IMG/VR virus record: IMGVR_UViG_2654587510_000002
Coordinates: 3,053 to 67,052 of that record
Direction: 5' to 3' (one strand)
Origin: a virus
Lineage: Duplodnaviria; Caudoviricetes
Length of the DNA: 64,000 bases
The first letter of the stretch is position 1; every line of letters begins with the position of its first letter. The position numbers and the translations under genes are program-made. This document shows positions 9,527 through 36,333 of the stretch, one piece after another. Below the pieces are notes generated by a model that saw nothing but the letters and a program-made list of their open reading frames with translations, did not search any database and was not told the DNA's origin.

Positions 9527-9537
9527 CGATCGGAAGT

Positions 9538-10504: not shown

Positions 10505-10519
10505 GTTAATGGAGGCAAA

Positions 10520-10846: not shown

Positions 10847-10847
10847 C

Positions 10848-10975: not shown

Positions 10976-11009
10976 AATTTCATGTAATTGTATCAAGTAA
11001 GGATTAAGA

Positions 11010-11792: not shown

Positions 11793-11917
11793 CCTAACAA
11801 ACAATTTGAGAGCGATTCAGCACGCTTGGCATTTTTAGTTTGGGTTAAGTTTAGTGTTTACGGTGATCAAACGGGGTGCAGTGCTAGCGTGCTTCACACC
11901 TTAATTGGGCGTTATAT
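11792..11917 (+). repeat. attC (VXR-like)
   Basis: GCCTAAC...GTTATAT. Confidence 0.9.
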
Positions 11918-11995
11918 TTCCAATCTAATTTTACGCAGTGGAACATTTTTTTGTGCTTTTGGTATAGTACGCGGTTTTATGTTCAGGTACACATT

Positions 11996-12400
11996 ATGGT
12001 TAAGCACAAGCTTTGTTTTATTCCTCTCGTTTTCGCAAGCTTTTACACCCATGCAACGGATGTTTTGAGTTGTGAATATACTGAGGTGTCTGCTGCTGGA
12101 GCATGGAAAAATCTAGATTCAAACTATCATGTTGATTATTACTTAGACGCCACAAACGGCAGTGCGATCTCAATTGAAAACAATGCCAAAACTAAGTACG
12201 AATGGCACAGAGTGGACGAAAGTTCAGTAAATGGTAACTTCTTAATATCAAAGCCCACTTTCAACAAGAATACCTATTTTTATACAACTACGACGGTCTC
12301 ATCGGCATACTCGGGGTACACTGTTTCAACAACTTCAAGTATTAATGTATCAACTCCAATAACCATTACTTACCGAGGCCAATGCATGATGGTGAAATAG
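11996..12400 (+). CDS. Cassette 15: putative secreted protein
   Basis: Signal-peptide-like MVKHKLCFIPLVFASFYTHA; paired Cys near both termini. Confidence 0.7.
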   Translation: MVKHKLCFIPLVFASFYTHATDVLSCEYTEVSAAGAWKNLDSNYHVDYYLDATNGSAISIENNAKTKYEWHRVDESSVNGNFLISKPTFNKNTYFYTTTTVSSAYSGYTVSTTSSINVSTPITITYRGQCMMVK

Positions 12401-12430
12401 GAAAAATAACAAAGCATTTAAGAGGAATTC

Positions 12431-13368
12431 TGTAGTTGACCCGATCTAGTGGACACCTTCAATTGTAATTGGAGGTGTTTATGCCAGCTTATAAATCAGG
12501 TAAAAAAACTCAACAATATCTCACGGAATTTAAGGTAACTGTTGTCCGACTTTCGCTTCGAGAAGGACCTACAGTTAAAAGCGTGGCGCTGTCACGATCA
12601 AGAAGGGCAGGTTTTGAAGAAGCGGATAATTAAAGTGTTTACCCAGAGTCGAGAGACTTACGGTAGTTCACGAGTTCATGCAGAGCTTAGGCGTCAAGGA
12701 GTTTTGGTTAGCCGCAAGCGCGTGGCTAGGATCATGCGAGAGCAAGGGCTACGGGCGCGAAGTTATCGTATTTACCTTAAGATGGCCAAGCTACATCGGT
12801 TTTATCAATCGATTAAGAATATTAAAAAAGACATACCCAAACCAACGGCAGTTAATCAACAATGGTCTGGAGATCTAACGTATATCAAGCAAGGTAAACG
12901 TTGGATGTATCTAGCGGTCGTTATCGATCTTTACTCGCGTAAATCGTCGGTTGGTCGCTTGGTAGTAAGAAGAGTACACAACTAACGATGAGTTCGTTGA
13001 GAATGGCAATTAGAAATCGAAAGCCACAAGAGCGCTTATTGTTTCATACCGACAGAGGCTCTGAATATCGAGCCCATCAAGTTCAAGCTTTATTATCAAA
13101 AAATGGAATTGTCCCAAGTATGAATCGTCCAGGTCATTGCACTGATAATGCGGAGGTGGAGTCGTTCTTCCATACGCTCAAAGGCGACATAATTAGGAAA
13201 AATAGTTTTAAAAGTGAGAAGCAGCTTAGAGATAAACTTGCCGGTTATATCCAGCATTTTTATAACCGTTATAGACTGCACTCAAGTCTTGGATATCGAA
13301 CCCCACATGTATATGAAGTAGCGACGGGTTAAAGATAATAGGGTGTCCATTTTATCGGGTGAAGATCA
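12431..13368 (+). mobile_element. IS3-family insertion sequence, internally deleted (938 bp)
   Basis: IRL TGTAGTTGACCCGATCTAGTGGACACC; IRR reverse complement TGATCTTCACCCGATAAAATGGACACC; 3-bp TSD TTC. Confidence 0.92.
12481..13332 (+). pseudogene. IS3 transposase orfA/orfB, deleted and frameshifted
   Basis: orfA start MPAYKSGKK joins directly to orfB; the rve core ([25 protein letters not shown]) is split across two frames. Confidence 0.88.
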
Positions 13369-13492
13369 TTCACAACGCGTGGCATTTTTACTATGCGTTG
13401 ATTTTAGTGATTAAGGTGGTGTGCAGCGGCTTCGGTATTGCGTCGTTCACCCCTTAGCAGGGCGTTATATTTTTTCAACTTTTGAGGTAACA

Positions 13493-15253
13493 ATGAAAAT
13501 AAGTGAAATACAAATATCAAATTGGCGTTCGATCAAAGATGTTAGCATTAATTTTCAAGACTTGATGATTCTCATTGGTCAAAATAATCACGGCAAGTCG
13601 AATGTTTTAAATGCAATCCTATTCTTCTTTGGTGAGATAAAGCCCCAAGATTTGGACTTCAATGATGGCTCAGATGAACTTTATGTGGAAGTGACTTTTG
13701 ATGACTTGGTTGCAAGCGAATTATCTACATTTACGAAGTATGTGACCGCAGACCAAAAAATCAAAGTTAGAAGAACTGCAACAAAAGGTGGCTCATTAAC
13801 CTACCAAGGTTACACACAATCACCAGTCTTTGAGTGGTTAAAGGATGAAAATGCTTCTTCATATACGACGCGCAGCGTTGCCGAAGGACTAGAGTTTTAT
13901 GATTTACTCCCTCCAAGTGGAAGAATTACTAGAGCTAATATACAAGACGCTCAAGCACAGTACATAGAAGCAAATCAGGCAGATTTAGAGTTCAACTATG
14001 AATTAGAATCTACTAATTTTATGGGTGCTAAGAATGTTGCAAAAGGTATATTTGGCGATGTTTTCTATATACCTGCAGTAAAAGTTGCATCAGATGATTA
14101 CTCAAACAATAGCAGTAGTCTATTTAGCAAGCTATACGGTAGGATCATTTCTGATATTTCAGCTAATAGTGCTGGATGGGTTGAGGCTAAGGAAACCGTT
14201 GCTTCATTGTTTAGTTTACTAAATAAACGGGATACTGATGGTAATCCAAATACTCAGAGACCAACGCAGTTAGGAGAATTTGAAACCAAGCTAAATGAAC
14301 AATTGGCTAACTGGGGTTCTGAAGTAGAGCTAGAAGTATTGCCACCAAACGTAGAAGATGTTTTCAAAGCAAACACTCAGGTCTGGGTTAATGATGGTTG
14401 CAAGACGGACGTTTCGAGAAAGGGTAATGGTTTACAGAGAGCTTTAAGTTTCGCACTAATTAAGACGTTAGCCGATATCTTGAGAAATGAACAAGAGAAT
14501 GCTGAAACAACTGGGCGCTCTTCGTCGCAGTCGATGTTCTTTATCCTTGAAGAACCAGAACTCTATTTGCATCCACAGGCGCAGAGAGCGCTGTTAGAAT
14601 CACTAACCCTGTTGTCTAACTCAACAGGAGTGCAAGTTGTTCTTTGCACACATTCTGCTTCGCTAATAGATCTAAGCAAATACAAATCGATTTGTATTAT
14701 ACGTAAAGAAAACGTGGAAGTAGGCTCCAAAGCATGCCAATGCGAAGAGGAATTATTCATTGGCAATGGTAAAAAAGATTTCAATCTCAGTTACTGGATA
14801 AACCCGGATCGTAGTGAGTTGTTTTTTGCAAAGAAAGTCATTCTCGCTGAAGGTGCAACTGAAAAGACGGTAATTCCATTTGTTGCTCAAACTTTGGGTT
14901 GTTTTAAACATGATTATTCGGTTATCGATTGTGGTTCTAAGAACAACATTCCAATGTACTGTAACCTATTGAATAAGTTTAAAATTCCGTATGTTGCAGT
15001 CTATGATATTGACCATCAGGCTCATAAAGATGCTAATGCAAGAGCAACGTCAGATGCTGCTTCTCAAGCAATTGAAGATGCAATTAATGTTACTTATGGC
15101 TCCTCAGTAACATTTGTAAATGATATTGAAGAAGAACTAGGTATGCCTAGAGGTTTTGGCGGTAAGCCTTATGCTGCATTAGAGCATATATCAGCTGAAA
15201 CATATTCACTTCCAGACCAAATTAGAGATAAGGTCATTAATATATACGAATAG
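13493..15253 (+). CDS. Cassette 16: OLD-family ATP-dependent nuclease (ABC ATPase + TOPRIM, GajA-like)
   Basis: Walker A GQNNHGKS, signature GNGLQR, ILEEPELYLHP, THS; TOPRIM LAEGATE and YDID. Confidence 0.92.
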   Translation: MKISEIQISNWRSIKDVSINFQDLMILIGQNNHGKSNVLNAILFFFGEIKPQDLDFNDGSDELYVEVTFDDLVASELSTFTKYVTADQKIKVRRTATKGGSLTYQGYTQSPVFEWLKDENASSYTTRSVAEGLEFYDLLPPSGRITRANIQDAQAQYIEANQADLEFNYELESTNFMGAKNVAKGIFGDVFYIPAVKVASDDYSNNSSSLFSKLYGRIISDISANSAGWVEAKETVASLFSLLNKRDTDGNPNTQRPTQLGEFETKLNEQLANWGSEVELEVLPPNVEDVFKANTQVWVNDGCKTDVSRKGNGLQRALSFALIKTLADILRNEQENAETTGRSSSQSMFFILEEPELYLHPQAQRALLESLTLLSNSTGVQVVLCTHSASLIDLSKYKSICIIRKENVEVGSKACQCEEELFIGNGKKDFNLSYWINPDRSELFFAKKVILAEGATEKTVIPFVAQTLGCFKHDYSVIDCGSKNNIPMYCNLLNKFKIPYVAVYDIDHQAHKDANARATSDAASQAIEDAINVTYGSSVTFVNDIEEELGMPRGFGGKPYAALEHISAETYSLPDQIRDKVINIYE

Positions 15254-15255
15254 AA

Positions 15256-15352
15256 ATATAACAAAGCATTTAAGAGTGATTCGCAACGCTTGGCAGTTTC
15301 GCTTCGCTCAAGTATAGCCAAGCGCCGCTCACACCTTAATGCGGCGTTATGT
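15256..15352 (+). repeat. attC (short, 97 bp)
   Basis: ATATAAC...GTTATGT. Confidence 0.92.
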
Positions 15353-16450
15353 GCTAGTCATACGCTGAACTAAATGTATTAAAATCAGCAAATATTCATA
15401 GTTTGATGCCAACAGAAAGAAAATAAGAATCCAAACCCAAACTTTAAGTTTAAACAGTCTTCGATGTGATGAACTTTGGAATTTTTCAAAACTACTTTTG
15501 TAGTTTGCGAGAGTCGGTTCTTGTTGCGCTATTGTGAGCTCTAAAATTGAAATTTTGTGGTGTAATCGTTTATGTTCTTCACTTGATATTTGACTGGCTT
15601 TTTTTAACCTTACTATCTGTTGTTCACTTGGCTTAATTTTTGACTCTAGATCTTGAATTAATAATTTATGCTGATCATTTACCTTTATTAAATCTTTCAT
15701 TTTAGATTTGAGAATCTGATGTATAGCTTCGTGCTTCTGCGTACTGATTGGATCAATGATCAGATCTGTACACACGCTTTCTTGTAACCAGCCCTCAAGT
15801 CTCTCTTTGTGCTTGTTACGCTCAGTTATAGAGTCAACACGGTTATTATCGCGCTCTGGAGGATATTTCCTAGAATCAGTAATCGAGAACTCAAATATTG
15901 GTATATTACAAAGCTCAAATTCTAACTTTTTGTCATCTTCACACTTATGTGTGTTGGTAACTTCGATTACTAATTTACCACCCCATCTTTCGTACTCATC
16001 GGGATATTGATCTTTGTCGAATACACATAAAATATCAGGATAAAAGACTTTACCATTAGGTAACTCCAACCTTGGTTCTCGATATACATGCGTAAACTTA
16101 AATTTGAAAGTCTGACCTCTGGTAATAATGGTCATTTCTTTCATTGATGAAAGAACATCTACAGCAACTTCATGAGAGTAGGTTTCATCATAAGAACGAT
16201 CCCCTGTGGTTGAATCGCTTTTGGCAAATGCAAAGTGTGGGCTTTTCCCATTTCGAGGTATCAATTCGACTCTGTTATTTGGGTTCGGGTTCCGTGTCAT
16301 ATATTTTCTGTGTTTGTACACTGAATTCCTATATCGCATAGAGTTATCACGAATATCTAGAGCTTCGCGTATATTTACACTTAGATGGTTATTGTTATCG
16401 ACTAGATAAGTATTTGTTCTGGTGTCGAGAACATAAGCTGTCGTCTTCAT
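15347..16450 (-). CDS. Cassette 17 (inverted): CoiA-like PD-(D/E)XK nuclease + coiled coil + C-terminal TM
   Basis: PHFAF, E..SH, YPDILC, VIEVTNTH motifs; hydrophobic C-terminus. Confidence 0.72.
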   Translation of the reverse strand: MKTTAYVLDTRTNTYLVDNNNHLSVNIREALDIRDNSMRYRNSVYKHRKYMTRNPNPNNRVELIPRNGKSPHFAFAKSDSTTGDRSYDETYSHEVAVDVLSSMKEMTIITRGQTFKFKFTHVYREPRLELPNGKVFYPDILCVFDKDQYPDEYERWGGKLVIEVTNTHKCEDDKKLEFELCNIPIFEFSITDSRKYPPERDNNRVDSITERNKHKERLEGWLQESVCTDLIIDPISTQKHEAIHQILKSKMKDLIKVNDQHKLLIQDLESKIKPSEQQIVRLKKASQISSEEHKRLHHKISILELTIAQQEPTLANYKSSFEKFQSSSHRRLFKLKVWVWILIFFLLASNYEYLLILIHLVQRMTST

Positions 16451-16458
16451 TAACTGAC

Positions 16459-16474
16459 CTGTCTATTTATACAG
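16459..16474 (-). promoter_or_regulatory. LexA box
   Basis: CTGTATAAATAGACAG (CTG-N10-CAG), 8 nt upstream of the cassette 17 ATG. Confidence 0.8.
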
Positions 16475-16540
16475 TATTATCTTGCCGTACATTTTGTGTT
16501 TATTCAACAACCAATATAGGGTCTTGTGCATAAAAATCGC

Positions 16541-16667
16541 ACATAGCAAATCGTTTAAGACGGATTCACAACGTGTTGCATTTTTAGTTTAATTTAGCTT
16601 TAGTGTTTATGGCACAATAGGTTAGCTGCCGTGGTTGCGTTGTTCACCACTTAACGCGGCGTTATGC
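16541..16667 (+). repeat. attC with mutated inverse core (TAGC instead of TAAC)
   Basis: ACATAGC...GTTATGC. Confidence 0.85.
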
Positions 16668-16680
16668 AACCGGAGCAAAT

Positions 16681-17085
16681 ATGGATACTGAAATCAAAGT
16701 GACAGAACTACCAGACTTTAACGCCTTTCGTGTAGATGCTGTCCTCCCAAACGGTCACTCTGTCGGTTATATCAATATCTCTCTCAAAGGAGCGATCGCA
16801 GATCTTTGCGACTTATGCGTGAAAGATTCTTATATGTATCTCTGGCCAAATTTTATGCCTGTATTTCTTAGCATCAAGCGAATTAGAAATTACCAGAACA
16901 AGGGTATTGGAAGCCGGCTACTAGTTACAGCTATTGAACACTCAAGAGCTAACGGTTGTACTCAAATGAAAGGTTGGATGCACGGTGACAAAGTTAGGTT
17001 AGAAAGGTTTTATCGATCATTTGGTTTCGAAATTAGTGGAATTAATATCAAACTAGACCTTCGAAATATCCCTACAGGTGCTTAA
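16681..17085 (+). CDS. Cassette 18: GNAT acetyltransferase
   Basis: YQNKGIGSRLL, FYRSFGF. Confidence 0.88.
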   Translation: MDTEIKVTELPDFNAFRVDAVLPNGHSVGYINISLKGAIADLCDLCVKDSYMYLWPNFMPVFLSIKRIRNYQNKGIGSRLLVTAIEHSRANGCTQMKGWMHGDKVRLERFYRSFGFEISGINIKLDLRNIPTGA

Positions 17086-18785: not shown

Positions 18786-20012
18786 CTATTGGGCTTTCAG
18801 TGTGGCTACGTTGATCGCTGAAACTTCGTTCCAAGTTATCTCTGTGCCAGTGTAAATTTTCGTTGTTTCAGCGTTGGCGTGCGCCATTCGTTGAGTTGGT
18901 GAGATTCCCATATCTTTTATTGTTCGAGCTGATAAGCCTCGAATTTCATGATAAGAGGGACGTAGCGTTGAATCGATGGAATCGAAAAGCCCTGTAGCGT
19001 CTCTAACCTTACTAAACTCTTTGCTGATGTTGTGGTGATGCACTTGATAGTGGTGATCGCATTCCTTAGCAATACCTCTGGTGCTTTGCTTGGGCTTTCT
19101 GTGAACGATGTATGGACAAAGTAGGCGATCTGTTTTGGATAACTCTACGACTTCTTTAATTGCTTCGGTTACTGGAATCGCGACAAATGAAGCATCTGAA
19201 TCTTTAACTTTAGCGCGGTGAATATAAAGAGTGCCGTAAACTGTTTGTCCGTCTTTAATAGATGGTCGCTCGTCCCATACAATCCCGCAAACTCCCTCCT
19301 TTGGTTCTTGTATCTTATATTTTATCCGGTAGATTTCTCTAACCGCATGAGTTGTTTGAAGTGTTAGTGCCATTGCGACTTTTAAAAACAAAGGGGCAGC
19401 TGAATATATTGCCTCGTATGCTTCCATTGTCAGGTCGTGTCTATTCTTTTTGCTTTCAGCTTTAGTAACCTTTTTAGGTTTCTTGTTGATGGCAAAATTA
19501 GATTCAATCGCTGACTCATCGGCTAAGTAAGAAAACACCTTTTTTATATTGCTTAATTTATAGTTGAATGATTTTTTAGATAACTTTTCGTAGTGCGCGT
19601 TTAAAAACTCATTTATATGTGAGAGGTTCAAACTTTTTGAATATACACCGCCTAGGTAGCTTTCTAATATTTCGCATTCTTTAACGAACTTTTTAAATAC
19701 TGTATCGGATAGGTTTTCCTCACTTTTAACTCTAGCGATAACCAGAGGTAGCCACTCTCTTAACGGCTTATTGAACTTATCTCTAGGTTTAGCGTTTGTC
19801 TCAGTTTCAAGGGTAAACCCATTTGAGCGGTGCTTGTGGTTGTAAGCCGAAGCCGCTTGTATTGCTTGGGTTTCCGTCGTCCCTTTGGGAAACCATTTTT
19901 GAGTGCCGTCCAACGTAGTGAAGCGGTAGCGAACTTTTTTACTCCTATCTTTGGTTTTGATTAGATATGGTGGAAAGTGCCGTGTCGCGACACTCCTTGG
20001 CCTTGCTGCCAT
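18786..20012 (-). CDS. int: Phage tyrosine integrase
   Basis: Lambda-Int-like arm-binding N-terminus (MAARPR..PPYL); HEIR, AH, KIY motifs. Confidence 0.9.
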   Translation of the reverse strand: MAARPRSVATRHFPPYLIKTKDRSKKVRYRFTTLDGTQKWFPKGTTETQAIQAASAYNHKHRSNGFTLETETNAKPRDKFNKPLREWLPLVIARVKSEENLSDTVFKKFVKECEILESYLGGVYSKSLNLSHINEFLNAHYEKLSKKSFNYKLSNIKKVFSYLADESAIESNFAINKKPKKVTKAESKKNRHDLTMEAYEAIYSAAPLFLKVAMALTLQTTHAVREIYRIKYKIQEPKEGVCGIVWDERPSIKDGQTVYGTLYIHRAKVKDSDASFVAIPVTEAIKEVVELSKTDRLLCPYIVHRKPKQSTRGIAKECDHHYQVHHHNISKEFSKVRDATGLFDSIDSTLRPSYHEIRGLSARTIKDMGISPTQRMAHANAETTKIYTGTEITWNEVSAINVATLKAQ

Positions 20013-20014
20013 TG

Positions 20015-20218
20015 TTACGCCTCCAAGAATTGCAACAGTTCATCTGTTTGCGATGATTGGGCGTTCACTGATACACATACCAAGTAACGCCCTGTGGGTG
20101 TTTGCTCTCCCTCTATTTTACCTGATTTTATCCAGTTCTTAACGGTTGCCACGCTAATTCCCGAATCAGGATAGAACTCTTCAATGTAGTTCCTAGGTTT
20201 TAGTTTTCTCATAGTCAT
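20015..20218 (-). CDS. xis: Excisionase
   Basis: Small wHTH (SVATVKNWIKSGKI..PTGRYLV) directly upstream of int. Confidence 0.8.
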   Translation of the reverse strand: MTMRKLKPRNYIEEFYPDSGISVATVKNWIKSGKIEGEQTPTGRYLVCVSVNAQSSQTDELLQFLEA

Positions 20219-25954: not shown

Positions 25955-26398
25955 TTAGGTAAGAGGTTGTGAGTTTTGGATTGTGTCTAGAGTTTCTAGA
26001 TCGAGTTTCAGCTTTTTTAGCCGATACTCTCTGACTGCCGGATGCCGTTTAACTTCGGCTTCTGTTCTCAGCTCTCGTAGAACTTGTGATTTTTTCGTTC
26101 TAACGAAATGAGGATCAGGGTAGGCAATAACTGATTCGATTGGATGTAATGAGAAATCCAAGTTGTAGTTCCCTTTTTCGGGAATGGAATAAAGGACTTT
26201 ATCCCGTTCCCCCTCGACTTGCTTGTAGGCCAGATCTAAATTCATTTTAGATACGCTTGCATACATGTGTTGATGTGAGTAGTTAAGCCCGATGTAATGC
26301 ATTTTCAGCATCAAATCATAGCCAGTCATTTTTTGACCCGACTCATTCAACTCAAGGTATATAAGGGTTTGAAGTTTATTGAGGTCCACTTTTCTCAT
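25955..26398 (-). CDS. PadR/AphA-like winged-helix regulator
   Basis: TGYDL, SHQHMY, EGERDKVLYSI resemble AphA TGYDI, SHQQVY, EGKPDRKVYSI. Confidence 0.7.
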   Translation of the reverse strand: MRKVDLNKLQTLIYLELNESGQKMTGYDLMLKMHYIGLNYSHQHMYASVSKMNLDLAYKQVEGERDKVLYSIPEKGNYNLDFSLHPIESVIAYPDPHFVRTKKSQVLRELRTEAEVKRHPAVREYRLKKLKLDLETLDTIQNSQPLT

Positions 26399-27218: not shown

Positions 27219-27626
27219 TTATAGCATTTTTGTCGCGCTCAGTATCGCTTCGTTGATTATTGCCTCAACTTTGTCTTCTGGCAGGTTAAGAGAATCGATA
27301 GTTTTCTTTAGTCTTAGGTAAGGTTCTAGCGACCTTTGTTTATCTGATTGTCTTTGCAGTATTTCTTCTGATGATAGAGATGCCTTGTCTGGTGAGCCTT
27401 TACCCGTTCGCAGCCAATGAGCATTAACCCCTAGCGCATCTGCTATCTCTATCAGCTTTGTTGAGCCTGAGCTCTGGCTTTTCTCTAGTCTACTTATCTG
27501 TGACTGCGCTAAGCCACTTAGCTCCGCAAGTCTTGCTTGGCTCATGGCTTTGCCTTGTTCCAAGTTATGTTGAAGTCTTCTTGCTAGTGCAATTCTCGCC
27601 CCAAAAGACATGTTTTTGTAATTCAT
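27219..27626 (-). CDS. CI-like repressor (XRE HTH, no S24 peptidase domain)
   Basis: MSQARLAELSGLAQSQISRLE...IADALGVNAHWLRTGKG; divergent from cro; only 135 aa. Confidence 0.85.
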   Translation of the reverse strand: MNYKNMSFGARIALARRLQHNLEQGKAMSQARLAELSGLAQSQISRLEKSQSSGSTKLIEIADALGVNAHWLRTGKGSPDKASLSSEEILQRQSDKQRSLEPYLRLKKTIDSLNLPEDKVEAIINEAILSATKML

Positions 27627-27731
27627 TTATTCCTCCTCGCATATTTTTTTATTGTAGCGCGGATGAAATCAAGGTTGAAATGCATTTTTGCATATATTAT
27701 CTTTAGGTAAAAATGAGTATAGAGGTAAAGA

Positions 27732-27950
27732 ATGGGTTTTATTGATGAATTACAGCGCATATCGCGAGAAACATCTCAAGTGTGCTTGGCAAAAGAATTG
27801 GGGGTTTCTCAATCTCAAGTTTGTCGTTGGATAAACAAAGCTCAAATCCCAAGCGCAACAAAGGTTAAGTCAATTTCAGAAATTACAGGGATCTCTATCG
27901 AGGACATTATCAACGAAATCTCAGAGCGGGAGAGTGAGTTATCTACATAG
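27732..27950 (+). CDS. Cro-like HTH protein
   Basis: SQVCLAKELGVSQSQVCRW. Confidence 0.82.
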   Translation: MGFIDELQRISRETSQVCLAKELGVSQSQVCRWINKAQIPSATKVKSISEITGISIEDIINEISERESELST

Positions 27951-30539: not shown

Positions 30540-30827
30540 ATGAAAATAGTAAGTAAAAAGATCAGAAATTCAGCAAGAGGCCAAGATTGCACATTGCGCT
30601 TAGTAAGTGTTTGCAACCATAATCCAGAGACGACAATTTTAGCTCATATTGGGTTTGATGGCGGTTGGGCTACTAAATGTAGTGATAATATCGCTGTGTA
30701 CTCATGTTCAGATTGCCACGTTGAAATTGATAGGTGCTCTCGAGGGACGCACGCAGAAGATAAGCTTCGTGCTCTCGAAGAAACCCAAGCAATCCTAATT
30801 CAACAAGGTTTACTGGAGTTTAAATGA
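30540..30827 (+). CDS. DUF1364 (YbcO-like) putative nuclease
   Basis: SARGQDCTLR, NPETTILAH, CSDCH..ID. Confidence 0.85.
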   Translation: MKIVSKKIRNSARGQDCTLRLVSVCNHNPETTILAHIGFDGGWATKCSDNIAVYSCSDCHVEIDRCSRGTHAEDKLRALEETQAILIQQGLLEFK

Positions 30828-31261
30828 TGTCTGCCTACGATAGTGAATACCGACAGTTGTTTGAAAGCTTAACTAGGGTTCGCCAGAACTTAGAAACGGT
30901 TTTAAAGCTGTCTAACGTTAGTGATGATGCTTTTTCTTGGGTAATGTTTGCCTATGTTAGCTCCGAGGAAGACGAACATAGTTACAGAAAAGTGAGGCGA
31001 CTTATTGTTTCTGAACTCGATGAACAGCTATCTAAGGAATCTGCTGATAATCCAAGTCTTATATTGAGGGTTGCCGATCTTACGATTGCAGAAGCGTTAG
31101 GGGGGGATTTAAAACAGAGTCATCGCGCTTCTATCTTGGGTGTGTCTAAGCCTACTTATTATAGGAATGCTCATCGGTACCAGAGCTTGATGGAAGTCGC
31201 TCGAAAGGTGGTTGTTAATTGGGAGTTAGAGGCTAGAAACAAGATACTTGAAAACTCATGA
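30824..31261 (+). CDS. Putative late antiterminator Q-like protein
   Basis: Last gene of the nin-like region; C-terminal HTH RASILGVSKPTYY; terminator follows. Confidence 0.55.
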   Translation: MMSAYDSEYRQLFESLTRVRQNLETVLKLSNVSDDAFSWVMFAYVSSEEDEHSYRKVRRLIVSELDEQLSKESADNPSLILRVADLTIAEALGGDLKQSHRASILGVSKPTYYRNAHRYQSLMEVARKVVVNWELEARNKILENS

Positions 31262-31314: not shown

Positions 31315-31349
31315 AAGAAAGGGGGCTGCATAATTGCAGCCCCCTTTTT
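31315..31349. terminator. Bidirectional intrinsic terminator
   Basis: AAAGGGGGCTGCA-TAAT-TGCAGCCCCCTTTTT. Confidence 0.85.
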
Positions 31350-31485
31350 AGTTAAATATTTCAGGGTCGGCTATTTGATATATAGCCTCAATTATTTTGT
31401 CTTTGTCCTCTTTCTGCACAACCTCTTCATGTAGGCTCTCCAGAAAATCAATAATAAGCCCGAAACACTCCTTTTTTAATTGCAC
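31348..31485 (-). CDS. Unannotated 45-aa small ORF, candidate antirepressor
   Basis: AAGGAG RBS 6 nt before GTG; MQLKKECFGLIIDFLESLHEEVVQKEDKDKIIEAIYQIADPEIFN; stop abuts the terminator. Confidence 0.7.
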   Translation of the reverse strand: MQLKKECFGLIIDFLESLHEEVVQKEDKDKIIEAIYQIADPEIFN

Positions 31486-31618
31486 CCACTACTCCTTGAT
31501 TGCTCAGCTAGTCTAGCGCCACCTTGACGCGTGTCATGAATCCAACGCTCTTTATTGTTATAATTATCACTAATGTAAAGCGCTGAGATAACGTTACACA
31601 ATTCTTCACATATTGCAG

Positions 31619-31636
31619 AGGGTTGAAATCCACCCT
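31619..31636. promoter_or_regulatory. VqmA-type operator
   Basis: AGGGTTGAAATCCACCCT, an 18-bp quasi-palindrome resembling the V. cholerae VqmA site AGGGGGGAAATCCCCCCT (recalled). Confidence 0.65.
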
Positions 31637-31675
31637 GTTAATGTTGCATTCCTGTTGGATTGTTGAGTATTTGAT

Positions 31676-32410
31676 ATGGATGATAATAGCTACCTGAGAG
31701 CTTTATGCTACAAATTCAGTATGCATCGGTTCCCTTGTATGATTTTACTGCGCAATGGGAGTATTTACTCTACAAATGAGCGCATGTCCGATTTTTTCTC
31801 TATTAATAAGGATGTTAATTGCCACTATTCTATTGGTAGAAATCTTGAGTTGTTTCAAAGTTTTTCTGCAATACTTGAACATATTTTGTTACATCTGAAT
31901 TCTAAGACTTTTATTGTGTCTGGGGAGACGGATAGTGGTATAAAAATCTGCTTATCTAGGAAGTCACCAATTATTGCACCGAGTGGTAAGCTTATTGGTG
32001 TGGAGATTCAGTTAATTCCAATGTCTGTGGTTATGGGGGCTGTTGGATATTTCCAAAGTAAGTTTTTTTACCAAACTAATGACATCGCCGTAACTCTAAG
32101 AGAGTCGATTGGTGGGTGGGAATTTAGTGATCTCCAAAGTTCGTACTTGTTCTTCATTGTCAGAAACTTTTCTGAGGGGGGGTTGGCCGAAATTTTCGGT
32201 GTGAAACGCACCTCTGCAAGAAGTTGTATTGAGAGAATTAAAGTAAAAATGGAAGCAAAGTTAGGGTGTAAGATAGACGGCCTTGACGGAATTCGAAAGG
32301 CTTGCTTTGAGCACGGACTGCACTGCATGTTGCCTAAAGGGATGTTTCCAGTTCAACGATGCATTGAATTACATTTCGACCTTGACGATTGGTATGAGGT
32401 TAGATTGTAA
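31676..32410 (+). CDS. VqmA-like PAS + LuxR-type HTH regulator
   Basis: 244 aa. SRKSPIIAPSGKLIG resembles VqmA FTKTPWRDSQGKIQG; FSDLQSSYLFFIV...LAEIFGV...IERIKVKM forms the HTH; GLHCMLPKGMFPVQRCIEL resembles GFGSVIPKTLLRKQLSVVL. Confidence 0.75.
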   Translation: MDDNSYLRALCYKFSMHRFPCMILLRNGSIYSTNERMSDFFSINKDVNCHYSIGRNLELFQSFSAILEHILLHLNSKTFIVSGETDSGIKICLSRKSPIIAPSGKLIGVEIQLIPMSVVMGAVGYFQSKFFYQTNDIAVTLRESIGGWEFSDLQSSYLFFIVRNFSEGGLAEIFGVKRTSARSCIERIKVKMEAKLGCKIDGLDGIRKACFEHGLHCMLPKGMFPVQRCIELHFDLDDWYEVRL

Positions 32411-32430
32411 CAATAGACTAATTATGTTTT

Positions 32431-32455
32431 AGCCTCGCGAATGCGGGGCTTTTTT
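32431..32455 (+). terminator. Intrinsic terminator
   Basis: AGCCTCGC-GAAT-GCGGGGCTTTTTT. Confidence 0.8.
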
Positions 32456-32466: not shown

Positions 32467-32802
32467 ATGGCAGAAACAAAAATTGAGATTTCTCTGCCAA
32501 TTGTCGGCATCGCAGTTACGTTAATGTGTGGCGCGTTAACAGTCGTCGGGGGCATTAACGCAATGTATATGGCATCAATCAATGGACAACTCGCGTCCTT
32601 GGCTGAAAGTGACTCAAAGCATGCCGGTGATATCTCGGATCTACAAAACGGTATGATTGCGCTTCAAAACGAAATGACTAACGCGATTCAAGCGTACCAA
32701 GATCCAACGGATTATTGGGCTAGCTATTACGATGATGATGGTAAGTTTTATCAGCTGCGCTTACATAGGGCGCAATTTTTCAAGGAAAGAAAGGATGGTT
32801 AA
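32467..32802 (+). CDS. TM + coiled-coil protein in the lysis cassette
   Basis: N-terminal TM; position. Confidence 0.65.
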   Translation: MAETKIEISLPIVGIAVTLMCGALTVVGGINAMYMASINGQLASLAESDSKHAGDISDLQNGMIALQNEMTNAIQAYQDPTDYWASYYDDDGKFYQLRLHRAQFFKERKDG

Positions 32803-32804
32803 TT

Positions 32805-33116
32805 ATGATGTATAAAATTGCAGAAAGTATCGACAAGAACAAAGGCTTGTTTGTCATGACGATTTTGGCGGCTTGCTTCTATCACTTCATGGTTGTGCCC
32901 TCGTCTGAAACCATGATGGCCTCAGACACAGATCGCATGATCCTAAAATTTGGTTTCTCGATTTTTGGATTGTACTTTTTAGCACGATTTTTTGACTGGA
33001 TGAATGGAGTGGAGTTTAGAAATGTTATTGAAAATATCAATAAAGACCCCGTTAGTGCTGCATTTTACAATGGCTTTAGGCTTATCGCTATTGCCATCGT
33101 ACTCTGTGGCATCTGA
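32805..33116 (+). CDS. Putative holin
   Basis: Three TM segments; overlaps the endolysin gene. Confidence 0.65.
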   Translation: MMYKIAESIDKNKGLFVMTILAACFYHFMVVPSSETMMASDTDRMILKFGFSIFGLYFLARFFDWMNGVEFRNVIENINKDPVSAAFYNGFRLIAIAIVLCGI

Positions 33117-33603
33117 TCAGTATGATCAGTTAATCAGAGACTCATGGGAAAAGCGAGTAAGGCATGTTCATTGGGGGCACGCTTGGGCTCAAGTTAAGCA
33201 GGAATCGGCCTTTCGCTGTGATGCTGTTTCTCCTGTTGGCGCGGCAGGGTGTGCACAGTTTATGCCTGGTACTTGGAATGATATGCAGCGACTTGGCATT
33301 GTTCCAGATAGCGCAACGCCATTTAACCCTCGTTGGGCTTTTGAAGCTCAAGCATATTACATGGACTATTTACTGAGGTTTTGGAAATCACCTAGAACAC
33401 ACGAGAGCTGGGTTAACTTAGCAACTGCAAGTTATAACGCAGGTGCGGGTAATATTTTGAAGTCTCAAAAGCTTTGCAATGGTGCTGTGGAGTATGGGGA
33501 GATTATGGAGTGTTTGCCTGTCGTCACAGGGCATCATCACAAAGAAACTCAACACTATGTGAAAAATATCAACAAGTACCGGATTGAAAGATTTGGAAAA
33601 TAA
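33070..33603 (+). CDS. Endolysin, SLT lytic transglycosylase
   Basis: QESAF..AVSPVGAAGCAQFMPGTW, ASYNAG, ETQHYV. Confidence 0.92.
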   Translation: MALGLSLLPSYSVASDQYDQLIRDSWEKRVRHVHWGHAWAQVKQESAFRCDAVSPVGAAGCAQFMPGTWNDMQRLGIVPDSATPFNPRWAFEAQAYYMDYLLRFWKSPRTHESWVNLATASYNAGAGNILKSQKLCNGAVEYGEIMECLPVVTGHHHKETQHYVKNINKYRIERFGK

Positions 33604-33627
33604 GCCTCGCTATTGCGGGGCTTTTTT
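33602..33627 (+). terminator. Intrinsic terminator
   Basis: AAGCCTCGC-TATT-GCGGGGCTTTTTT. Confidence 0.75.
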
Positions 33628-33643
33628 GTGAGGAAAGGGATTT

Positions 33644-34003
33644 ATGAAATGGTATGTGTGGTTGTTAGTTTTTAGTAGCTTGGCGATTGGAGTGCTGATC
33701 TACAACGAACGACAACAAAACATAGGAAGAAATGAAGCGATCATTGAGTGCAATGAATCTGAGAAGCAAATTTTACTAGATATTATTGCTGATCTAGATC
33801 ATCAGATAGAGGTCAAAGAGGCTTTTGAGCAGCGAGCTAATATGCTCATTCAAGAGTTAGAGACCGAAAAGGAAGCGCTGAGGATTCAACATGAAAGAGA
33901 TATTGACATTTTCAGAGCGACTCAAACGAATGAATGTGGCGATTTGCCTCATGGTGATGCTGTTAACGGGTTGCTCTCAGGGGCGAACTTCCGTCTCAAT
34001 TAG
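33644..34003 (+). CDS. i-spanin (Rz-like)
   Basis: N-terminal TM, coiled coil, overlapping lipoprotein gene. Confidence 0.75.
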   Translation: MKWYVWLLVFSSLAIGVLIYNERQQNIGRNEAIIECNESEKQILLDIIADLDHQIEVKEAFEQRANMLIQELETEKEALRIQHERDIDIFRATQTNECGDLPHGDAVNGLLSGANFRLN

Positions 34004-34184
34004 TGCAACTAAGTACATCTATCAAAAGCCGCCATTACCTCTAGTCGAAGCTTGCACCTATGAAGACTACACGGGGTCTGTATGGAACGACCTCGCTGAG
34101 TATGCAAAGGAGTTGCAACTCGAAATAGTATTTTGCCAGTTACAAAACGATAAGCTCAAGGAGGCTTACGAGCCCATTGAGTGA
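33930..34184 (+). CDS. o-spanin (Rz1-like lipoprotein)
   Basis: Lipobox LLTGC, Pro-rich, overlaps Rz. Confidence 0.8.
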   Translation: MNVAICLMVMLLTGCSQGRTSVSISATKYIYQKPPLPLVEACTYEDYTGSVWNDLAEYAKELQLEIVFCQLQNDKLKEAYEPIE

Positions 34185-34207: not shown

Positions 34208-34816
34208 ATGGAACAATTCTACGAATACCGAGTTCGTGAGATAAATGAACTCAAGCCTAACCCTAACAATCCGAATATTCATGATGAAAAAAATATTTCT
34301 GAGTTGGCCTCATCATTAAAAGAATGGAAATTTACAAACCCAATTCTGATCGATGAGAAAGATGAAATCATAGCAGGTCATGGACGTTGGCAAGCCGCCA
34401 AGCATATCGGTTATGAGCATGTTCCTACGATAACGCTATCAGGCTTATCCGAAGAGCAAAAAATTGGCTATATGATCGCTGATAACTCATTACCACACGG
34501 TTCAGTTTGGGATGAGGGTTTACTGCTTCAAAACCTTGAAGCATTAGAAGATATGGATTTTGACGTTGATCTCTTGGCTCTAGAGAATGTAGAGGGGCTG
34601 GATCTTTCTATGGACCTTGAAGAGTTAGAAGATGGTCATGCGCTCGATGCAGGGCGAGAGTTGAAAGAGTCTGGTACCAGGTTGGTTATAGGCGAATATT
34701 CATTTCCAATAGAGCGTGAGGTCTATTTAAAGTGGCAAGAGGAAGTGAGAGAAGCAGGAGGTTTTAGTCGCGATGAGGTTTTAGAGACCATTAAAGCGAG
34801 GCTTAAACTATGCTAA
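34208..34816 (+). CDS. ParB/Srx N-terminal domain protein
   Basis: LKPNPNNPNIH, NPILID, IIAGHGRWQAA, IADN. Confidence 0.85.
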   Translation: MEQFYEYRVREINELKPNPNNPNIHDEKNISELASSLKEWKFTNPILIDEKDEIIAGHGRWQAAKHIGYEHVPTITLSGLSEEQKIGYMIADNSLPHGSVWDEGLLLQNLEALEDMDFDVDLLALENVEGLDLSMDLEELEDGHALDAGRELKESGTRLVIGEYSFPIEREVYLKWQEEVREAGGFSRDEVLETIKARLKLC

Positions 34817-36333
34817 AACTCGTTCCTATCGATTCAGTTAAGCCCTCCACATATAACCCACGTAAAGCCGACATCGAGCGGCTAGATATTCTTGAGTTGA
34901 GTTTGAGAAAGCTTGGCTTCGTTCTTCCCCTATTTGCCGACGCTAACGGCGAAATTCTATCTGGCCACCAAAGACACCTTGTTGCTAAAGAGCGCTTAGG
35001 CTTAACTCATGTGCCTGTTTTCTTTACAGAGAAAATGGACATTGCTGATCGCAAAGCAATAAACATTGCGTTTAATCGCGGGACTAATGATCTCAACATC
35101 TCTGACACACCAACTAATATGACCGAGGCGTTAGCTAAAGCTAATCTCGTAGAAAGTTCGCTAATGGTTAAAGATCGAGATTTAGAAGACCGTAGTTTTT
35201 ATCGGTGCCTAAATTCAAGGCCAGTGCTTGTTTCTGAGTTGGTTGATGCTAACCGTGGATGTTGGATTAACTACGCTAGAAACATGGCGCGAATGCTCAA
35301 GCGAAAAAAAGTAGACATGGCGGTTGTGTGCACACCTGATAATAAAGTCGTTAATGGAATTGGTCGCTTGCAGTACGCTGCAGAAAAAAGCATTGAGCGA
35401 ATTGAGGTTATCTATATTTCTCACGCAGAGGCGGCGCTAAGTCATGCCATGCTTAATTTGCTCAGTATGGATTTTGATATTCATACTCGTTATGAGGACT
35501 TGCTCCGATACAATTCATTCAGACGGGCACGCCGAGCGCGGAGCTCACTTGGACAAGGTTTTATTTTTGCCGTTGCACCTAATTCACGCTCTAAGGACTT
35601 TGATGTAGAGACGGACAGCAACTCCAAACTTTGGAAAAGAACGTATGGCCGAAATGTTGTCGATTTTGGAGCAGGTCATTTAACTGAAACATACTTATTA
35701 AGAAGTATTGGTGTGAACGTTACGCCATTTGAGCCTTATCGATTAGGTGAGAGTGGGAATATCAACAAAGATGAAAGCATAGACTTGGCAATTGGCTTTT
35801 TAGAACAAGTCAGGTCTGGTAAGAAATTTGATTCTGTATTCATAAGCTCAGTTTTGAATAGCGTTCCTTTTGTTGCTGATAGGCGCAAGGTCGCTTGTAT
35901 TTGCGCGGCGTTGTGCGGCCCTAAAACTCGCTTGTACGCATGTGCTAGTTCGTCTACCGACAGCACAAGCTTAAATGTAACCAAGGGCTCAGATGGGTTA
36001 GCGCAGCGACAGTCAACATACGCTACATTTGGCCTAGATTATGAAGATGGGATAACCATTGGCGACTTTCAAGAAAAGCCAAAGGTGCAAAAGTACCATT
36101 CTCCTAGTGAGTTCTACGCATTGTTTAAGCATTACTTTCAGACGGTTCGCGTAGAAGATAGTCTTAACAATGTTAGAGCTACGTGTATGACCATAGATTT
36201 TAAGGCGGTGGTTAAGGACCTCAAGTCAGCTTTGGAGTTTGAGTTTAATTTACCTTATCCAGATGGTTCCAAAATGGGTCTAACAACAATGGCAATAGAA
36301 GCGTTCGAAAAAAGACTAGGGGTGAAGTTATGA
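34810..36333 (+). CDS. Tandem ParB-like domains fused to a SAM-dependent methyltransferase-like domain
   Basis: YNPR/LSGHQR, VVNGIGRL, VVDFGAG, FDSVFISSVLNSVP. Confidence 0.75.
   Translation: MLKLVPIDSVKPSTYNPRKADIERLDILELSLRKLGFVLPLFADANGEILSGHQRHLVAKERLGLTHVPVFFTEKMDIADRKAINIAFNRGTNDLNISDTPTNMTEALAKANLVESSLMVKDRDLEDRSFYRCLNSRPVLVSELVDANRGCWINYARNMARMLKRKKVDMAVVCTPDNKVVNGIGRLQYAAEKSIERIEVIYISHAEAALSHAMLNLLSMDFDIHTRYEDLLRYNSFRRARRARSSLGQGFIFAVAPNSRSKDFDVETDSNSKLWKRTYGRNVVDFGAGHLTETYLLRSIGVNVTPFEPYRLGESGNINKDESIDLAIGFLEQVRSGKKFDSVFISSVLNSVPFVADRRKVACICAALCGPKTRLYACASSSTDSTSLNVTKGSDGLAQRQSTYATFGLDYEDGITIGDFQEKPKVQKYHSPSEFYALFKHYFQTVRVEDSLNNVRATCMTIDFKAVVKDLKSALEFEFNLPYPDGSKMGLTTMAIEAFEKRLGVKL

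Follow-up and report, generated by a model that had tools for sequence, protein, structure and literature searches.

The window analyzed here, that is, the entire 64,000-nucleotide stretch of DNA from a lambda-like phage of the class Caudoviricetes, contains a compact unit between a Q-like gene and the lysis genes. The unit consists of the following features:

31318–32450, the whole module: two hairpin terminators flanking a 244-aa open reading frame (ORF) on the plus strand, a divergent 45-aa ORF on the minus strand and an 18-bp palindrome
31318–31347 (arms 31318–31330 and 31335–31347), bidirectional: hairpin terminator, 13/13 complementary, with a 4-nt loop
31348–31485, minus strand: 45-aa small ORF with a GTG start, taken from the ORF list; candidate effector of the module
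31492–31497, minus strand: ribosome-binding site AAGGAG, 6 nt before the GTG of the 45-aa ORF
31486–31584, minus strand: predicted leader of the leftward transcript, about 99 nt, placed from the position of the -10 hexamer and holding an imperfect stem-loop
31591–31596, minus strand: TAACGT, located 22 nt after the box; putative -10 hexamer of a leftward promoter that would depend on an activator, with no good -35 element and the box in its place
31619–31636, palindromic: 18-bp VqmA-type operator AGGGTTGAAATCCACCCT with arms AGGGT and ACCCT
31676–32410, plus strand: gene for a 244-aa VqmA-family regulator with an ATG start, comprising a PAS domain, a LuxR-type helix-turn-helix (HTH) domain and a short C-terminal extension that ends around an invariant Trp
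32431–32450, plus strand: intrinsic terminator with an 8-bp stem (6 GC pairs) followed by TTTTT, located after the regulator gene and before the lysis genes

The original prediction, made from the DNA alone, had described a terminator-bounded unit in this position, with a PAS/HTH protein next to a divergent small ORF; every element that it named was found in place, and the ORF list contains both frames. The two ORFs are separated by 190 nt. For the regulator, a 223-aa form is also on record, but we prefer the 244-aa start because the two closest homologues keep the N-terminus of the longer form. The stop codon of the 45-aa ORF abuts the left hairpin, which dominates the RNA fold and has T-rich tracts beyond it on both strands. 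This hairpin closes the transcript of the 45-aa ORF and is probably also the first terminator downstream of the Q-like gene. The fold of the whole leftward RNA has a z-score of -4.4, mostly contributed by the terminator. The AAGGAG motif occurs 27 times in the window, and only three of these occurrences are located 4–10 nt before an ORF of 40 codons or more.

The 244-aa protein is a VqmA-family transcription factor that combines PAS and LuxR-type HTH domains, as had been predicted. Pfam, NCBIfam and PHROGs yielded nothing significant for it (the best PHROG, 27555, ‘transcriptional regulator’, reached an E-value of 0.012), and a mucin match that surfaced in the family searches was discarded as spurious. 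A single-sequence phmmer search detected VqmA of phage VP882 (7DWM) at an E-value of 7.5e-4 over residues 86–227; in pairwise comparison, the two proteins match at 2e-10, and tblastn against 50,697 phage records retrieved only VP882 (two records of the one phage), with 19.7% identity over 92% of the query. With a profile of eight subfamily sequences, the match to 7DWM extends to full length (residues 3–227, E-value 9.4e-18), and the structures of Vibrio cholerae VqmA (6UGL, 6KJU and 6IDE) are detected at about 2e-5. A comparison of a predicted structure with VqmA had been proposed as a check. Foldseek searches with the AlphaFold2 model (pLDDT 89.2, pTM 0.79) returned VqmA chains at ranks 1–8 (6ide_B with TM-scores of 0.68/0.72), followed by EL222 and PAS domains, and the nearest solved relatives are VqmA proteins, with that of VP882 in first place. 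GerE was recognized in 14 of 22 scanned relatives and PAS_4 in 10, but neither was recognized in the window protein.

The family is rare and divergent. A search of 5.8 billion proteins at E<=0.01 yielded just three family members, one of them the window protein itself, and the three close homologues, which share 51–57% identity, have many invariant positions in common. The subfamily profile was run against three sets of genomes. It matched 69 of 401 from Vibrionaceae (E<=1e-8), 9 of 67 from the genus to which Photobacterium indicum belongs (E<=1e-18) and a single one of 285 from a second genus, presumably Vibrio (E<=1e-12); no match is close to the window protein. A search of genome, viral and metagenome contig collections with a three-sequence alignment found no relative; single-protein scans of viral contigs with P0004, P0005 and P0008 likewise found none, the scan with P0006 yielded no more than two partial HTH matches (L078 and L079), and tblastn of P0008 against phage records had no match. 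In an unrooted maximum-likelihood tree of 44 rows, a split with 98/95 support sets the group of the window protein apart from host VqmA and VP882 VqmA; the same side of the tree holds its relatives, the 265-aa Photobacterium paralogues and P0014, a prophage protein of P. indicum that is discussed below. The window protein is a member of a rare clade that is sister to host VqmA and VP882 VqmA.

The proposed VqmA-type box was compared with actual Vibrio loci. A canonical 18-mer was derived from Vibrio vqmA loci, 26 of 30 of which carry it 300–510 nt upstream of vqmA, and the window box agrees with this conserved host box at 15 of 18 positions. When up to three mismatches are allowed, the canonical box has a single match in 64 kb, at 31619–31636, where 0.01 is expected. 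The pattern AGGG-N10-CCCT occurs three times in the window versus 0.38 expected, which is weakly unusual, and GGGT-N8-ACCC has one exact match (the same box) and seven matches including those with one mismatch, versus 8.9 expected. The box, 40 nt upstream of the regulator start codon, has no second VqmA-type 18-bp counterpart anywhere else in the window, and its exact sequence does not occur in the viral contig collection. At all 25 host vqmA loci with the box that were compared, TANNNT starts 21–23 nt after it. The candidate hexamer in the window lies 22 nt leftward, as in host vqmR promoters, which puts the box at about -43, in the class II activator position; an 18-bp palindrome with G/C arms is thus found at class II distance from the predicted -10.

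Host VqmA with its vqmR promoter belongs to the same protein family, and the distance from box to -10 is the same (about 22 nt). Whereas the host target is the VqmR RNA, that in the window is a small protein-coding frame, and whereas host vqmA lies downstream of its target, the window regulator adjoins its target and is divergent from it. Furthermore, the inner GG and CC bases of the host box are changed. V. cholerae VqmA is reported to need a GG-N6-CC core (PMC8284805), whereas the core bases of the window box are TG-N6-AA; it is therefore likely that the phage factor alone uses this box, as is the case for the qtip promoter in VP882. As for the transcript, its identification as a VqmR homologue was rejected: there is no Rfam match, and the host sequence that is conserved past the promoter was not seen.

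The product of the 45-aa ORF is acidic (pI 4.4; 11 D+E versus 5 K+R). It had been expected not to resemble Qtip, the effector of VP882, and BLASTP against VP882 Qtip accordingly produced no alignment at E<=100. No homologue was found among 5.8 billion proteins, Pfam, NCBIfam and PHROGs returned nothing, and the best score in the ESM Atlas was 0.76, with no informative look-alike. Three further ORFs of 39–41 aa overlap the same AT-rich spacer, where a 45-codon frame is unremarkable, so that the case for the 45-aa ORF as a gene rests on its ribosome site, terminator and position.

The surroundings of the module contain the following features:

18786–20012: integrase (phrog_1, E-value 1e-17)
27219–27626, minus strand: CI-type repressor of 135 aa, HTH only, with no S24 peptidase domain (Pfam and PHROG repressor families)
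27732–27950: cro-like gene, divergent from CI
30824–31261, plus strand: 145-aa ‘Q-like’ gene just upstream of the module, named mainly by position
32467–34184, plus strand: lysis cassette with two small membrane proteins, an SLT-type endolysin and spanin-like ORFs
33004–33603, within the lysis cassette: SLT endolysin

An integrase-encoding lambda-like phage had been proposed, and the integrase was indeed found along with a large terminase, portal, major head protein and J-like tail fiber. The integrase and excisionase-like genes span 18786–20218, and the gene order is lambda-like. No protelomerase homologue was found in the 67-kb record, which is possibly incomplete, and the window phage does not qualify as a linear plasmid-like carrier with a telN-repA or par locus. 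The label ‘AphA-like’ given to 25955–26398 was not confirmed: this frame has no Pfam match, a PHROG ‘transcriptional regulator’ match at 3.8e-5 and no PDB sequence match below an E-value of 0.83. In a marine metagenome run containing 11% of the sampled words, two 151-nt contigs cover parts of the lysis region (32703–33103) and one short piece is unlike the window; the module was left uncovered, which counts neither for nor against it. The sequencing runs listed as containing the sequence included no RNA run.

The Q-like protein has no Pfam, PHROG or PDB sequence match and no relative in viral contigs. The top structural match of its model (pLDDT 82) is AlpA (7xyb_G; Z 7.5, rmsd 3.5 over 121 residues), a Z-score that is indecisive for a helical protein, and Foldseek gives the same pair a probability of 0.96 but an E-value of 0.8. 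The gene may encode an AlpA/21Q-type antiterminator.

The repressor matches Pfam HTH_3 at 2.4e-8 and Phage_CI_repr at 2.9e-4 (21.5 bits, just below the 22-bit cutoff), has no match to peptidase families in Pfam and is basic (pI 9.6). It is the presumed target of an antirepressor. An exact-consensus LexA box occurs once in the window, in an integron at 16459, and not in the prophage; at one mismatch, 21 boxes were found versus 21.6 expected, which is chance level, so that the LexA search amounts to a weak negative. Antirepressor-dependent induction of phages with non-cleavable repressors is known from P22 Ant, Gifsy and 186 Tum, in addition to N15. In the N15 AntC system, a short, HTH-only, non-self-cleaving repressor, like the CI in the window, depends on a protein antagonist for induction, and the gene of that antagonist is described as LexA-controlled (PMC10432266), whereas the candidate in the window is under a VqmA-type box, with no exact LexA box in the prophage.

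The closest described counterpart is the VqmA(Phage)-Qtip pair of VP882 (7DWM; EF057797.1, 28328–29035 and 27980–28219), which has the same regulator fold and provides the nearest solved relative. As in the window, the small gene is divergent, with a GTG start and an AAGGAG site, a palindrome with AGGG/CCCT arms lies near the regulator start, and the box is without the GG-N6-CC core reported to be needed by host VqmA (PMC8284805). There are also differences. The regulators are about 20% identical, fall into different clades and differ in that the triad of residues contacting the host autoinducer DPO is not kept in the window. Qtip has 79 aa compared with 45 aa for the small protein in the window, and the two have no similarity; the box spacing is N9 in VP882 versus N10, and the leader is longer in the window. 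VP882 is a linear plasmid phage with the module between telN and repA, whereas the window contains an integrase-encoding lambda-like prophage with the module between the Q-like and lysis genes. Finally, the VP882 repressor is reported to be autoproteolytic (PMC10432266), whereas that of the window is short and HTH-only.

Similar pairs have been described from linear plasmid-like phages, namely TF72-smORF72, TF63-smORF63 and XRE-LuxR-smORF of Aeromonas phages (Silpe et al. 2023, PMC10432266), each combining a regulator with an ORF of about 50 codons in the opposite orientation, as in the window. According to that account, the paired genes are about 100–200 nt apart, the small ORFs are often unannotated and are mutually unrelated in sequence, and the logic, which is proposed for the window as well, is one in which the factor activates the small ORF, the small protein inactivates CI uncleaved and lysis follows (PMC10432266). 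Those modules were sought, and found, in linear plasmid-like phages whose repressors, unlike that in the window, are autoproteolytic, at repA-telN or par loci, and, VP882 excepted, their regulators are of the XRE or LuxR-AHL type, whereas the window regulator is of the VqmA type (PMC10432266). The statement in the original prediction that such modules come from linear plasmid-like phages thus agrees with the published descriptions (PMC10432266, PMC12802170), the second of which lists VP882 and 22 near-identical relatives, all of them linear plasmid phages (PMC12802170). Among the publications surveyed, including PMC13603594, no VqmA-like module was found in an integrating phage.

A second instance was identified in a prophage of P. 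indicum ATCC 19614 (NZ_PYOC01000001.1, locus L003), for which no description was found in the literature. This prophage is syntenic with the window, sharing a short CI (36% identity), NinB, the Q-like gene and the lysis genes, and has a VqmA-like gene, P0014, at the same Q-like/lysis junction. P0014 is 29% identical to VP882 VqmA (E-value 5e-32) and 20% identical to the window regulator. Next to it is a divergent ORF of 57–65 aa that has no similarity to, and cannot be aligned with, the 45-aa ORF. The palindrome is perfect, with AGGGT/ACCCT arms 3 nt apart versus 8 in the window, and a -10-like hexamer, TAAAAT, follows 22 nt on. As we read the sequences, the leader is only a few tens of nucleotides in this prophage and in VP882, compared with a predicted 99 nt or so in the window.

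We consider it plausible, although somewhat short of probable, that the module is a self-contained switch of a regulator and a small gene, like VqmA(Phage)/Qtip of VP882, residing in the variable Q-to-lysis slot of an integrated lambda-like prophage. In such a switch, the factor would bind the 18-bp box as a dimer and activate the leftward promoter, its activity probably being modulated by a small ligand, which is probably not DPO. The promoter would yield an RNA of about 270 nt that starts with the 99-nt leader, continues with the 45-codon ORF and ends in the terminator. Its 45-aa product, which is acidic, would inactivate the short, basic, non-cleavable CI, and the prophage would therefore be induced without SOS. 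Because the regulator gene runs in the same direction as the late operon, late read-through would raise its level and could lock in the lytic decision. In favor of this proposal are the family assignment of the factor, the match of box and -10 spacing to host loci, the ribosome site and terminator of the small ORF, the opposite charges of the two proteins (pI 4.4 for the 45-aa product versus 9.6 for CI), the P. indicum prophage and the precedent of the published modules. Induction without SOS is supported indirectly, by the short repressor devoid of a peptidase domain and by a prophage with no exact-consensus LexA box. Several observations count against it: the module occupies a typical moron slot among the late genes rather than a place beside the immunity region; its small ORF lies antisense to the late transcript; four other genomes share the Q-like gene but carry different cargo in this slot and no such factor; the 45-aa ORF is without homologues, and such frames are common in the spacer; the leader is longer than in the P. 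indicum prophage and VP882; the DPO triad is not conserved; and the published modules come from phages with autoproteolytic repressors (PMC10432266), unlike the CI in the window.

Alternatively, the factor could be a regulator of lysogenic conversion, a moron product made in the lysogen that re-wires host genes such as the vqmR regulon or others whose promoters have similar boxes, with the box serving autoregulation and the 45-codon frame being either no gene or an unrelated one (for example, for exclusion). In favor of this, the module is a terminator-bounded unit in the Q-to-lysis slot, where the cargo varies in related prophages. The box, 40 nt before the factor start, sits between a weak TTGCAG and GTTAAT pair, an arrangement that, as we read it, suits autorepression, and since the box shares 15 of 18 positions with that of host vqmR, the factor might conceivably also bind the host promoter. 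VP882-type VqmA isoforms are all reported to activate host vqmR (PMC12802170). However, the -10-like hexamer at the host-like distance of 22 nt points leftward rather than toward the factor gene, the leftward frame is preceded by a strong ribosome site and closed by a terminator of its own, and the layout with a divergent small ORF recurs in the P. indicum prophage. We regard this explanation as unlikely.

Less likely still is a brake or timer on late expression, in which the leftward promoter would oppose the late transcript head-on or make a regulatory RNA, and lysis timing, rather than induction, would respond to the signal of the factor. The promoter does lie inside the late transcription path, between the Q-like gene (with its AlpA-like fold) and the holin genes, its transcript stops at the first terminator after the Q-like gene, and the leader is long and structured; moreover, the homologous host box drives the small RNA gene vqmR (PMC8284805). 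Conversely, no Rfam family, VqmR included, comes near threshold over the leftward RNA region, the ribosome site favors a translated product, the Q-like identity is itself weakly supported by the structural scores given above (Foldseek E-value 0.8; Z 7.5 for a helical protein), and no precedent was found in the literature.

The ligand pocket bears on whether the factor could be a faithful DPO receptor, with the host autoinducer bound and induction tracking cell density as in VP882. The host is a Vibrio, judging from the integron repeats and the sources of relatives. F67A and K101R are reported to abolish DPO binding in V. cholerae VqmA (bioRxiv 10.1101/2019.12.19.881847), and apparent counterparts of F67 and K101 had been noted in the window protein. 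Residue mapping by alignment through host orthologues places F63 (the second F of LELFQSF) opposite F67 and K96 (in SRKSP) opposite K101, so that the correspondence of these two residues stands; the third contact, F99, is replaced by S94, and the columns are not conserved. In the seven nearest relatives, the residues are F,F,I,V,F,F,V at F67, S,S,T,K,T,K,C at F99 and M,K,V,K,K,I,A at K101, and the invariant residue is the adjoining, out-of-register R95. Given these variable columns, the pocket is not conserved and DPO sensing is not supported; with the triad unconserved, there is possibly no ligand at all. Together with the 98/95 split that separates the clade from host and VP882 VqmA, this makes a DPO receptor improbable. 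That the module is a decaying cassette without a current role is most improbable of all: although the family is very rare and no close relative turned up in the 401, 67 or 285 genomes searched, the 244-codon frame is intact and confidently modeled, the homologues share many invariant positions, and the box, -10 hexamer, ribosome site and both terminators are intact.

Until now, the combination of a VqmA-like regulator, its operator and an opposing tiny gene was known from linear plasmid phages alone, in which it sets off lysis, and VqmA-type phage ‘eavesdropping’ has hitherto rested on one phage type, VP882 and its relatives, as described in PMC12802170. Our analysis adds two integrated lambda-like prophages, of Vibrio and of P. 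indicum, each with a very divergent VqmA-like regulator, a matching operator and an opposing small gene, all located at the same place in both genomes. Should the module induce the prophage, as in the switch that we favor, signal-dependent, SOS-independent induction reaches ordinary integrating phages; given the non-cleavable repressor and a prophage with no exact-consensus LexA box, the module may then be the only induction route. In that case, a receptor pocket that has clearly moved off DPO also implies a new ligand to be sought. A broader generalization, which we put forward tentatively and consider doubtful, is that a separate, undescribed clade of phage VqmA-like receptors, with a non-DPO ligand, private operators and fast-evolving small antirepressors, provides a lineage of integrating lambda-like Vibrionaceae prophages, those with non-self-cleaving repressors, with their main route of induction without SOS, in the form of an exchangeable Q-to-lysis cassette. 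If this were true, signal-controlled induction of the VP882 kind would not be peculiar to linear plasmid phages.

The carrier of the VqmA-like unit is an integrated lambda-like prophage (the source record is a 67-kb IMG/VR provirus), and the integrase-encoding lambdoid phage of the original prediction was recognized from its integrase (phrog_1), CI/Cro pair, terminase, portal and further lambda-like genes. The claimed terminator-bounded unit is also present, with the 244-aa ORF, the divergent 45-aa ORF, the 18-bp palindrome and both terminators in place. The relevant features are:

18786-20218: integrase (phrog_1) and excisionase-like gene
27219-27950: CI/Cro pair
After CI/Cro: O-like replication gene, NinB, YbcO and 145-aa Q-like gene, then the module
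31318-31347: left border, perfect 13-bp hairpin
31348-31485, minus strand: small ORF, 45 aa, GTG start (ORF list); AAGGAG ribosome site 6 nt ahead of the GTG
31619-31636: 18-bp palindrome AGGGTTGAAATCCACCCT, 40 nt ahead of the regulator ATG
31676-32410, plus strand: regulator ORF, 244 aa (ORF list)
32431-32450: right border, stem-loop and T-run
3' of the module: small membrane proteins, SLT endolysin, spanin-like ORFs
Structural genes: large terminase, portal, major head protein, J-like tail fibre

No protelomerase homologue was found in the 67-kb record. Two other prophage genes attracted attention. A late gene (34810-36333, plus strand) encodes a product whose N-terminal domain is ParB-like; this product matches the uncharacterised phrog_5475 over its full length (E 4e-101), and its first 100 residues match methyltransferase or ParB families. 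An early gene earlier called AphA-like (25955-26398, minus strand) encodes a 147-aa product with one PHROG match, 'transcriptional regulator' (E 3.8e-5); Pfam gave no match for it and a PDB sequence search nothing below E 0.83. Directly adjoining the integrase end of the prophage, positions 1-16700 hold a chromosomal-integron (superintegron-type) cassette array in which 16 copies of an attC-like repeat of ~120 nt, two of them (4440-4531 and 15258-15349) 99% identical, lie between single plus-strand ORFs. Its cassettes include:

1077-1769: trypsin-like peptidase
8630-9406: putAbiC protein
13421-15253: OLD-family AAA_15 and TOPRIM nuclease
16681-17085: GNAT

Curated family libraries did not recognize the 244-aa protein, and its single significant PDB match in a phmmer search was 7dwm_A (E 7.5e-4), the DPO-bound VqmA of phage VP882 (PMC8284805). 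In a tblastn search of 50,697 phage records, VP882 was the sole phage matched (two records, same phage), with 19.7% identity over 92% of the query and a pairwise E of 2e-10. The regulator belongs to a very small family: a search of 5.8 billion clustered proteins retrieved just the regulator itself and two homologues, P0002 (57% identity) and P0003 (51%; Vibrio chagasii, CAH7344351.1), and when these three were used to query 1.84 billion representatives in an exhaustive HMM search, 25 proteins scored at E<=1e-3, 6 of them at E<=1e-10. A profile of the 8 closest sequences matched 7DWM over the full length (E 9.4e-18) and V. cholerae VqmA at about 2e-5; with a wider 22-sequence profile, the values were 2.8e-46 and about 4e-34, respectively. 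We give more weight to the narrower profile because the 22-sequence alignment includes more VqmA-like members. The structural comparison proposed along with the VqmA-like assignment bore it out, the best eight Foldseek matches of the AlphaFold2 model (pLDDT 89.2, pTM 0.79) all being VqmA chains (6ide_B, TM 0.68/0.72). An unrooted tree of 44 rows, three long branches of which were flagged, splits into two groups (support 98/95), one with the window protein and its relatives together with 265-aa chromosomal Photobacterium paralogues and P0014, the VqmA-like protein of a Photobacterium indicum prophage, and the other of host VqmA and VP882 VqmA. The profile, structure and tree results therefore place the regulator in the wider VqmA family, outside the VqmA(Phage) lineage, and its membership in that family is nearly certain.

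The chromosomal paralogue (245-265 aa, N-terminus MNITDEQYLYAV...) is conserved in the genus of P. indicum, where it occupies ten places in 8 of 67 genomes (loci L008-L015, L037 and L038; E 1e-29 to 1e-36), beside ordinary metabolic and LysR genes rather than phage genes; it is closer than host VqmA to the clade of the window regulator. A CI repressor 89% identical to the window CI (P0034) has a longest contig of 60,814 b, the same figure as for P0002, and the two probably represent a sister phage of the same immunity type with a much more diverged regulator.

For the binding site, a reference was derived from the vqmA loci of 61 genomes, their genus taken to be Vibrio, 30 of which contain an orthologue (E<=1e-30); 26 of these 30 loci carry a conserved 18-mer, 300-510 nt ahead of vqmA. 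The fully symmetric-armed 18-mer, found in five host vqmA loci, has a single match in the window at up to three mismatches (31619-31636, minus strand, 15/18; 0.01 expected), which substantiates the predicted VqmA-type box against a host box from real Vibrio loci. A stricter pattern locates the box in 25 host loci, and every one of them has a TANNNT hexamer beginning 21-23 nt past it; the window counterpart, TAACGT (31591-31596, minus strand), begins 22 nt past the box, towards the small ORF. With this host-like spacing, an earlier, separate claim of a leftward promoter holds as well. The box is thereby centred near -43, where LuxR-type class II activators usually sit, and from the position of TAACGT transcription is predicted to begin near 31584, with a leader of about 99 nt. 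All three mismatches lie in the GG-N6-CC core, two in its inner CC and one in its inner GG; according to PMC8284805, V. cholerae VqmA requires this core and the qtip promoter lacks it. Because this core is altered, the box is, judging from its sequence, probably private to the phage's own regulator, and because it is unique in the window, no phage target of the regulator is evident beyond this intergenic region. We consider it likely that the box is the regulator's operator and heads an activated leftward promoter.

A second instance of the arrangement comes from the prophage of P. indicum ATCC 19614 (L003), which is syntenic with the window prophage and whose P0014 is 20% identical to the window regulator and 29% to VP882 VqmA (E 5e-32). 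The two prophages share a homologous large early gene, Cro, a conserved 65-aa gene, the O-like gene, NinB and a homologous Q-like gene, followed by the module, membrane proteins and an SLT endolysin; the P. indicum CI is short (118 aa) and 36% identical to the window CI over the HTH. Its module has an ORF of 57-65 aa divergent from the regulator, a perfect palindrome 44 nt ahead of the regulator ATG, with the AGGGT/ACCCT arms of the window box at a shorter spacing, and, 22 nt past the palindrome on the small-ORF side, TAAAAT. The two small ORFs could not be aligned; those of published modules likewise have no mutual similarity (PMC10432266).

What the regulator senses was approached through the DPO pocket, mapped by alignment through host orthologues from the genome loci. 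In V. cholerae VqmA, F67, F99 and K101 hold DPO, and F67A and K101R abolish its binding (bioRxiv 10.1101/2019.12.19.881847). The equivalents in the window regulator and its seven nearest relatives are:

F67: F63 in the window; F, F, I, V, F, F, V in the relatives
F99: S94 in the window; S, S, T, K, T, K, C in the relatives
K101: K96 in the window; M, K, V, K, K, I, A in the relatives

Thus, the predicted counterparts of F67 and K101 do exist, but the columns show no visible constraint in the seven relatives; the invariant residue, R95, is out of register by one position. Such variability leaves DPO sensing unsupported; DPO is quite unlikely to be the signal, if the regulator has a ligand at all.

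The 145-aa Q-like protein has no sequence-family match, and the structure closest to its model (pLDDT 82) is AlpA, a Q-type antiterminator. VIA-align placed AlpA first of 48,161 chains (Z 7.5, rmsd 3.5, 121 residues; 1.7 above the next), and Foldseek gave prob 0.96 with E 0.8; the modelled likeness is no more than suggestive of an AlpA-type antiterminator. The members of this family (145-170 aa; 30824-31261, plus strand, in the window, 5222-5734 in L003, and L044-L047 in further genomes) have no Pfam or PDB sequence match, and the P. indicum member has a Cys-rich insertion absent from that of the window. The Q-like gene was detected in 5 of 401 Vibrionaceae genomes searched, and in the four besides P. 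indicum the slot after it has other cargo; given this difference, the slot is variable, and the module acts as a cassette. In one of these four, also a prophage (L044, oriented, 3264-3446), a divergent 60-aa ORF lies between the Q-like and lysis genes, directly before the latter, with no regulator. If the AlpA likeness holds, late transcription would cross the module, with the regulator read in sense and the small ORF in antisense, and this passage underlies both a 'lock-in' idea and its rival, a 'brake on late transcription'.

Open frames of ~40 codons are common in the module spacer, so the gene status of the small ORF rests on its ribosome site, terminator, VqmA-type promoter and P. indicum parallel. 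No homologue of its product was found, ESM Atlas gave no informative neighbour and, as anticipated, there is no similarity to Qtip, the VP882 antirepressor. The product is acidic (pI 4.4) and CI is basic (pI 9.6). By analogy, the product may be an antirepressor. CI (135 aa) comprises an HTH and a short helical tail, and no S24 peptidase family was found in it; short HTH-only repressors without a peptidase need an antagonist for induction, as established for N15 (PMC10432266). The sole exact-consensus LexA box in the window (CTGT-N8-ACAG, 16459-16474) belongs to the integron and not to the prophage; it immediately precedes the inverted cassette gene 15347-16450. Sites with one mismatch are no more frequent than expected by chance. 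From the HTH-only CI and the location of the LexA box, the VqmA-type unit emerges, weakly and indirectly, as the best candidate for the induction input; that the 45-aa product induces the prophage via antirepression is a tentative proposal, somewhat short of probable.

Phage VqmA-type receptors have been described for VP882 and for 22 linear plasmid phages closely related to it (PMC12802170). The reported modules that pair a phage transcription factor with a counter-oriented small ORF come from linear plasmid-like phages, at repA-telN or par loci (PMC10432266), which agrees with their predicted main source; outside supplementary tables, the literature searched yielded none in an integrating phage. 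So far as the evidence goes, the window module works like this known kind, but it resides in an integrating lambda-like prophage rather than a linear plasmid phage, at a different genome position, between the Q-like and lysis genes, and combines a regulator from a different clade than VP882 VqmA, with a differing ligand pocket, and a partner repressor of a different type, HTH-only and with no peptidase family found.
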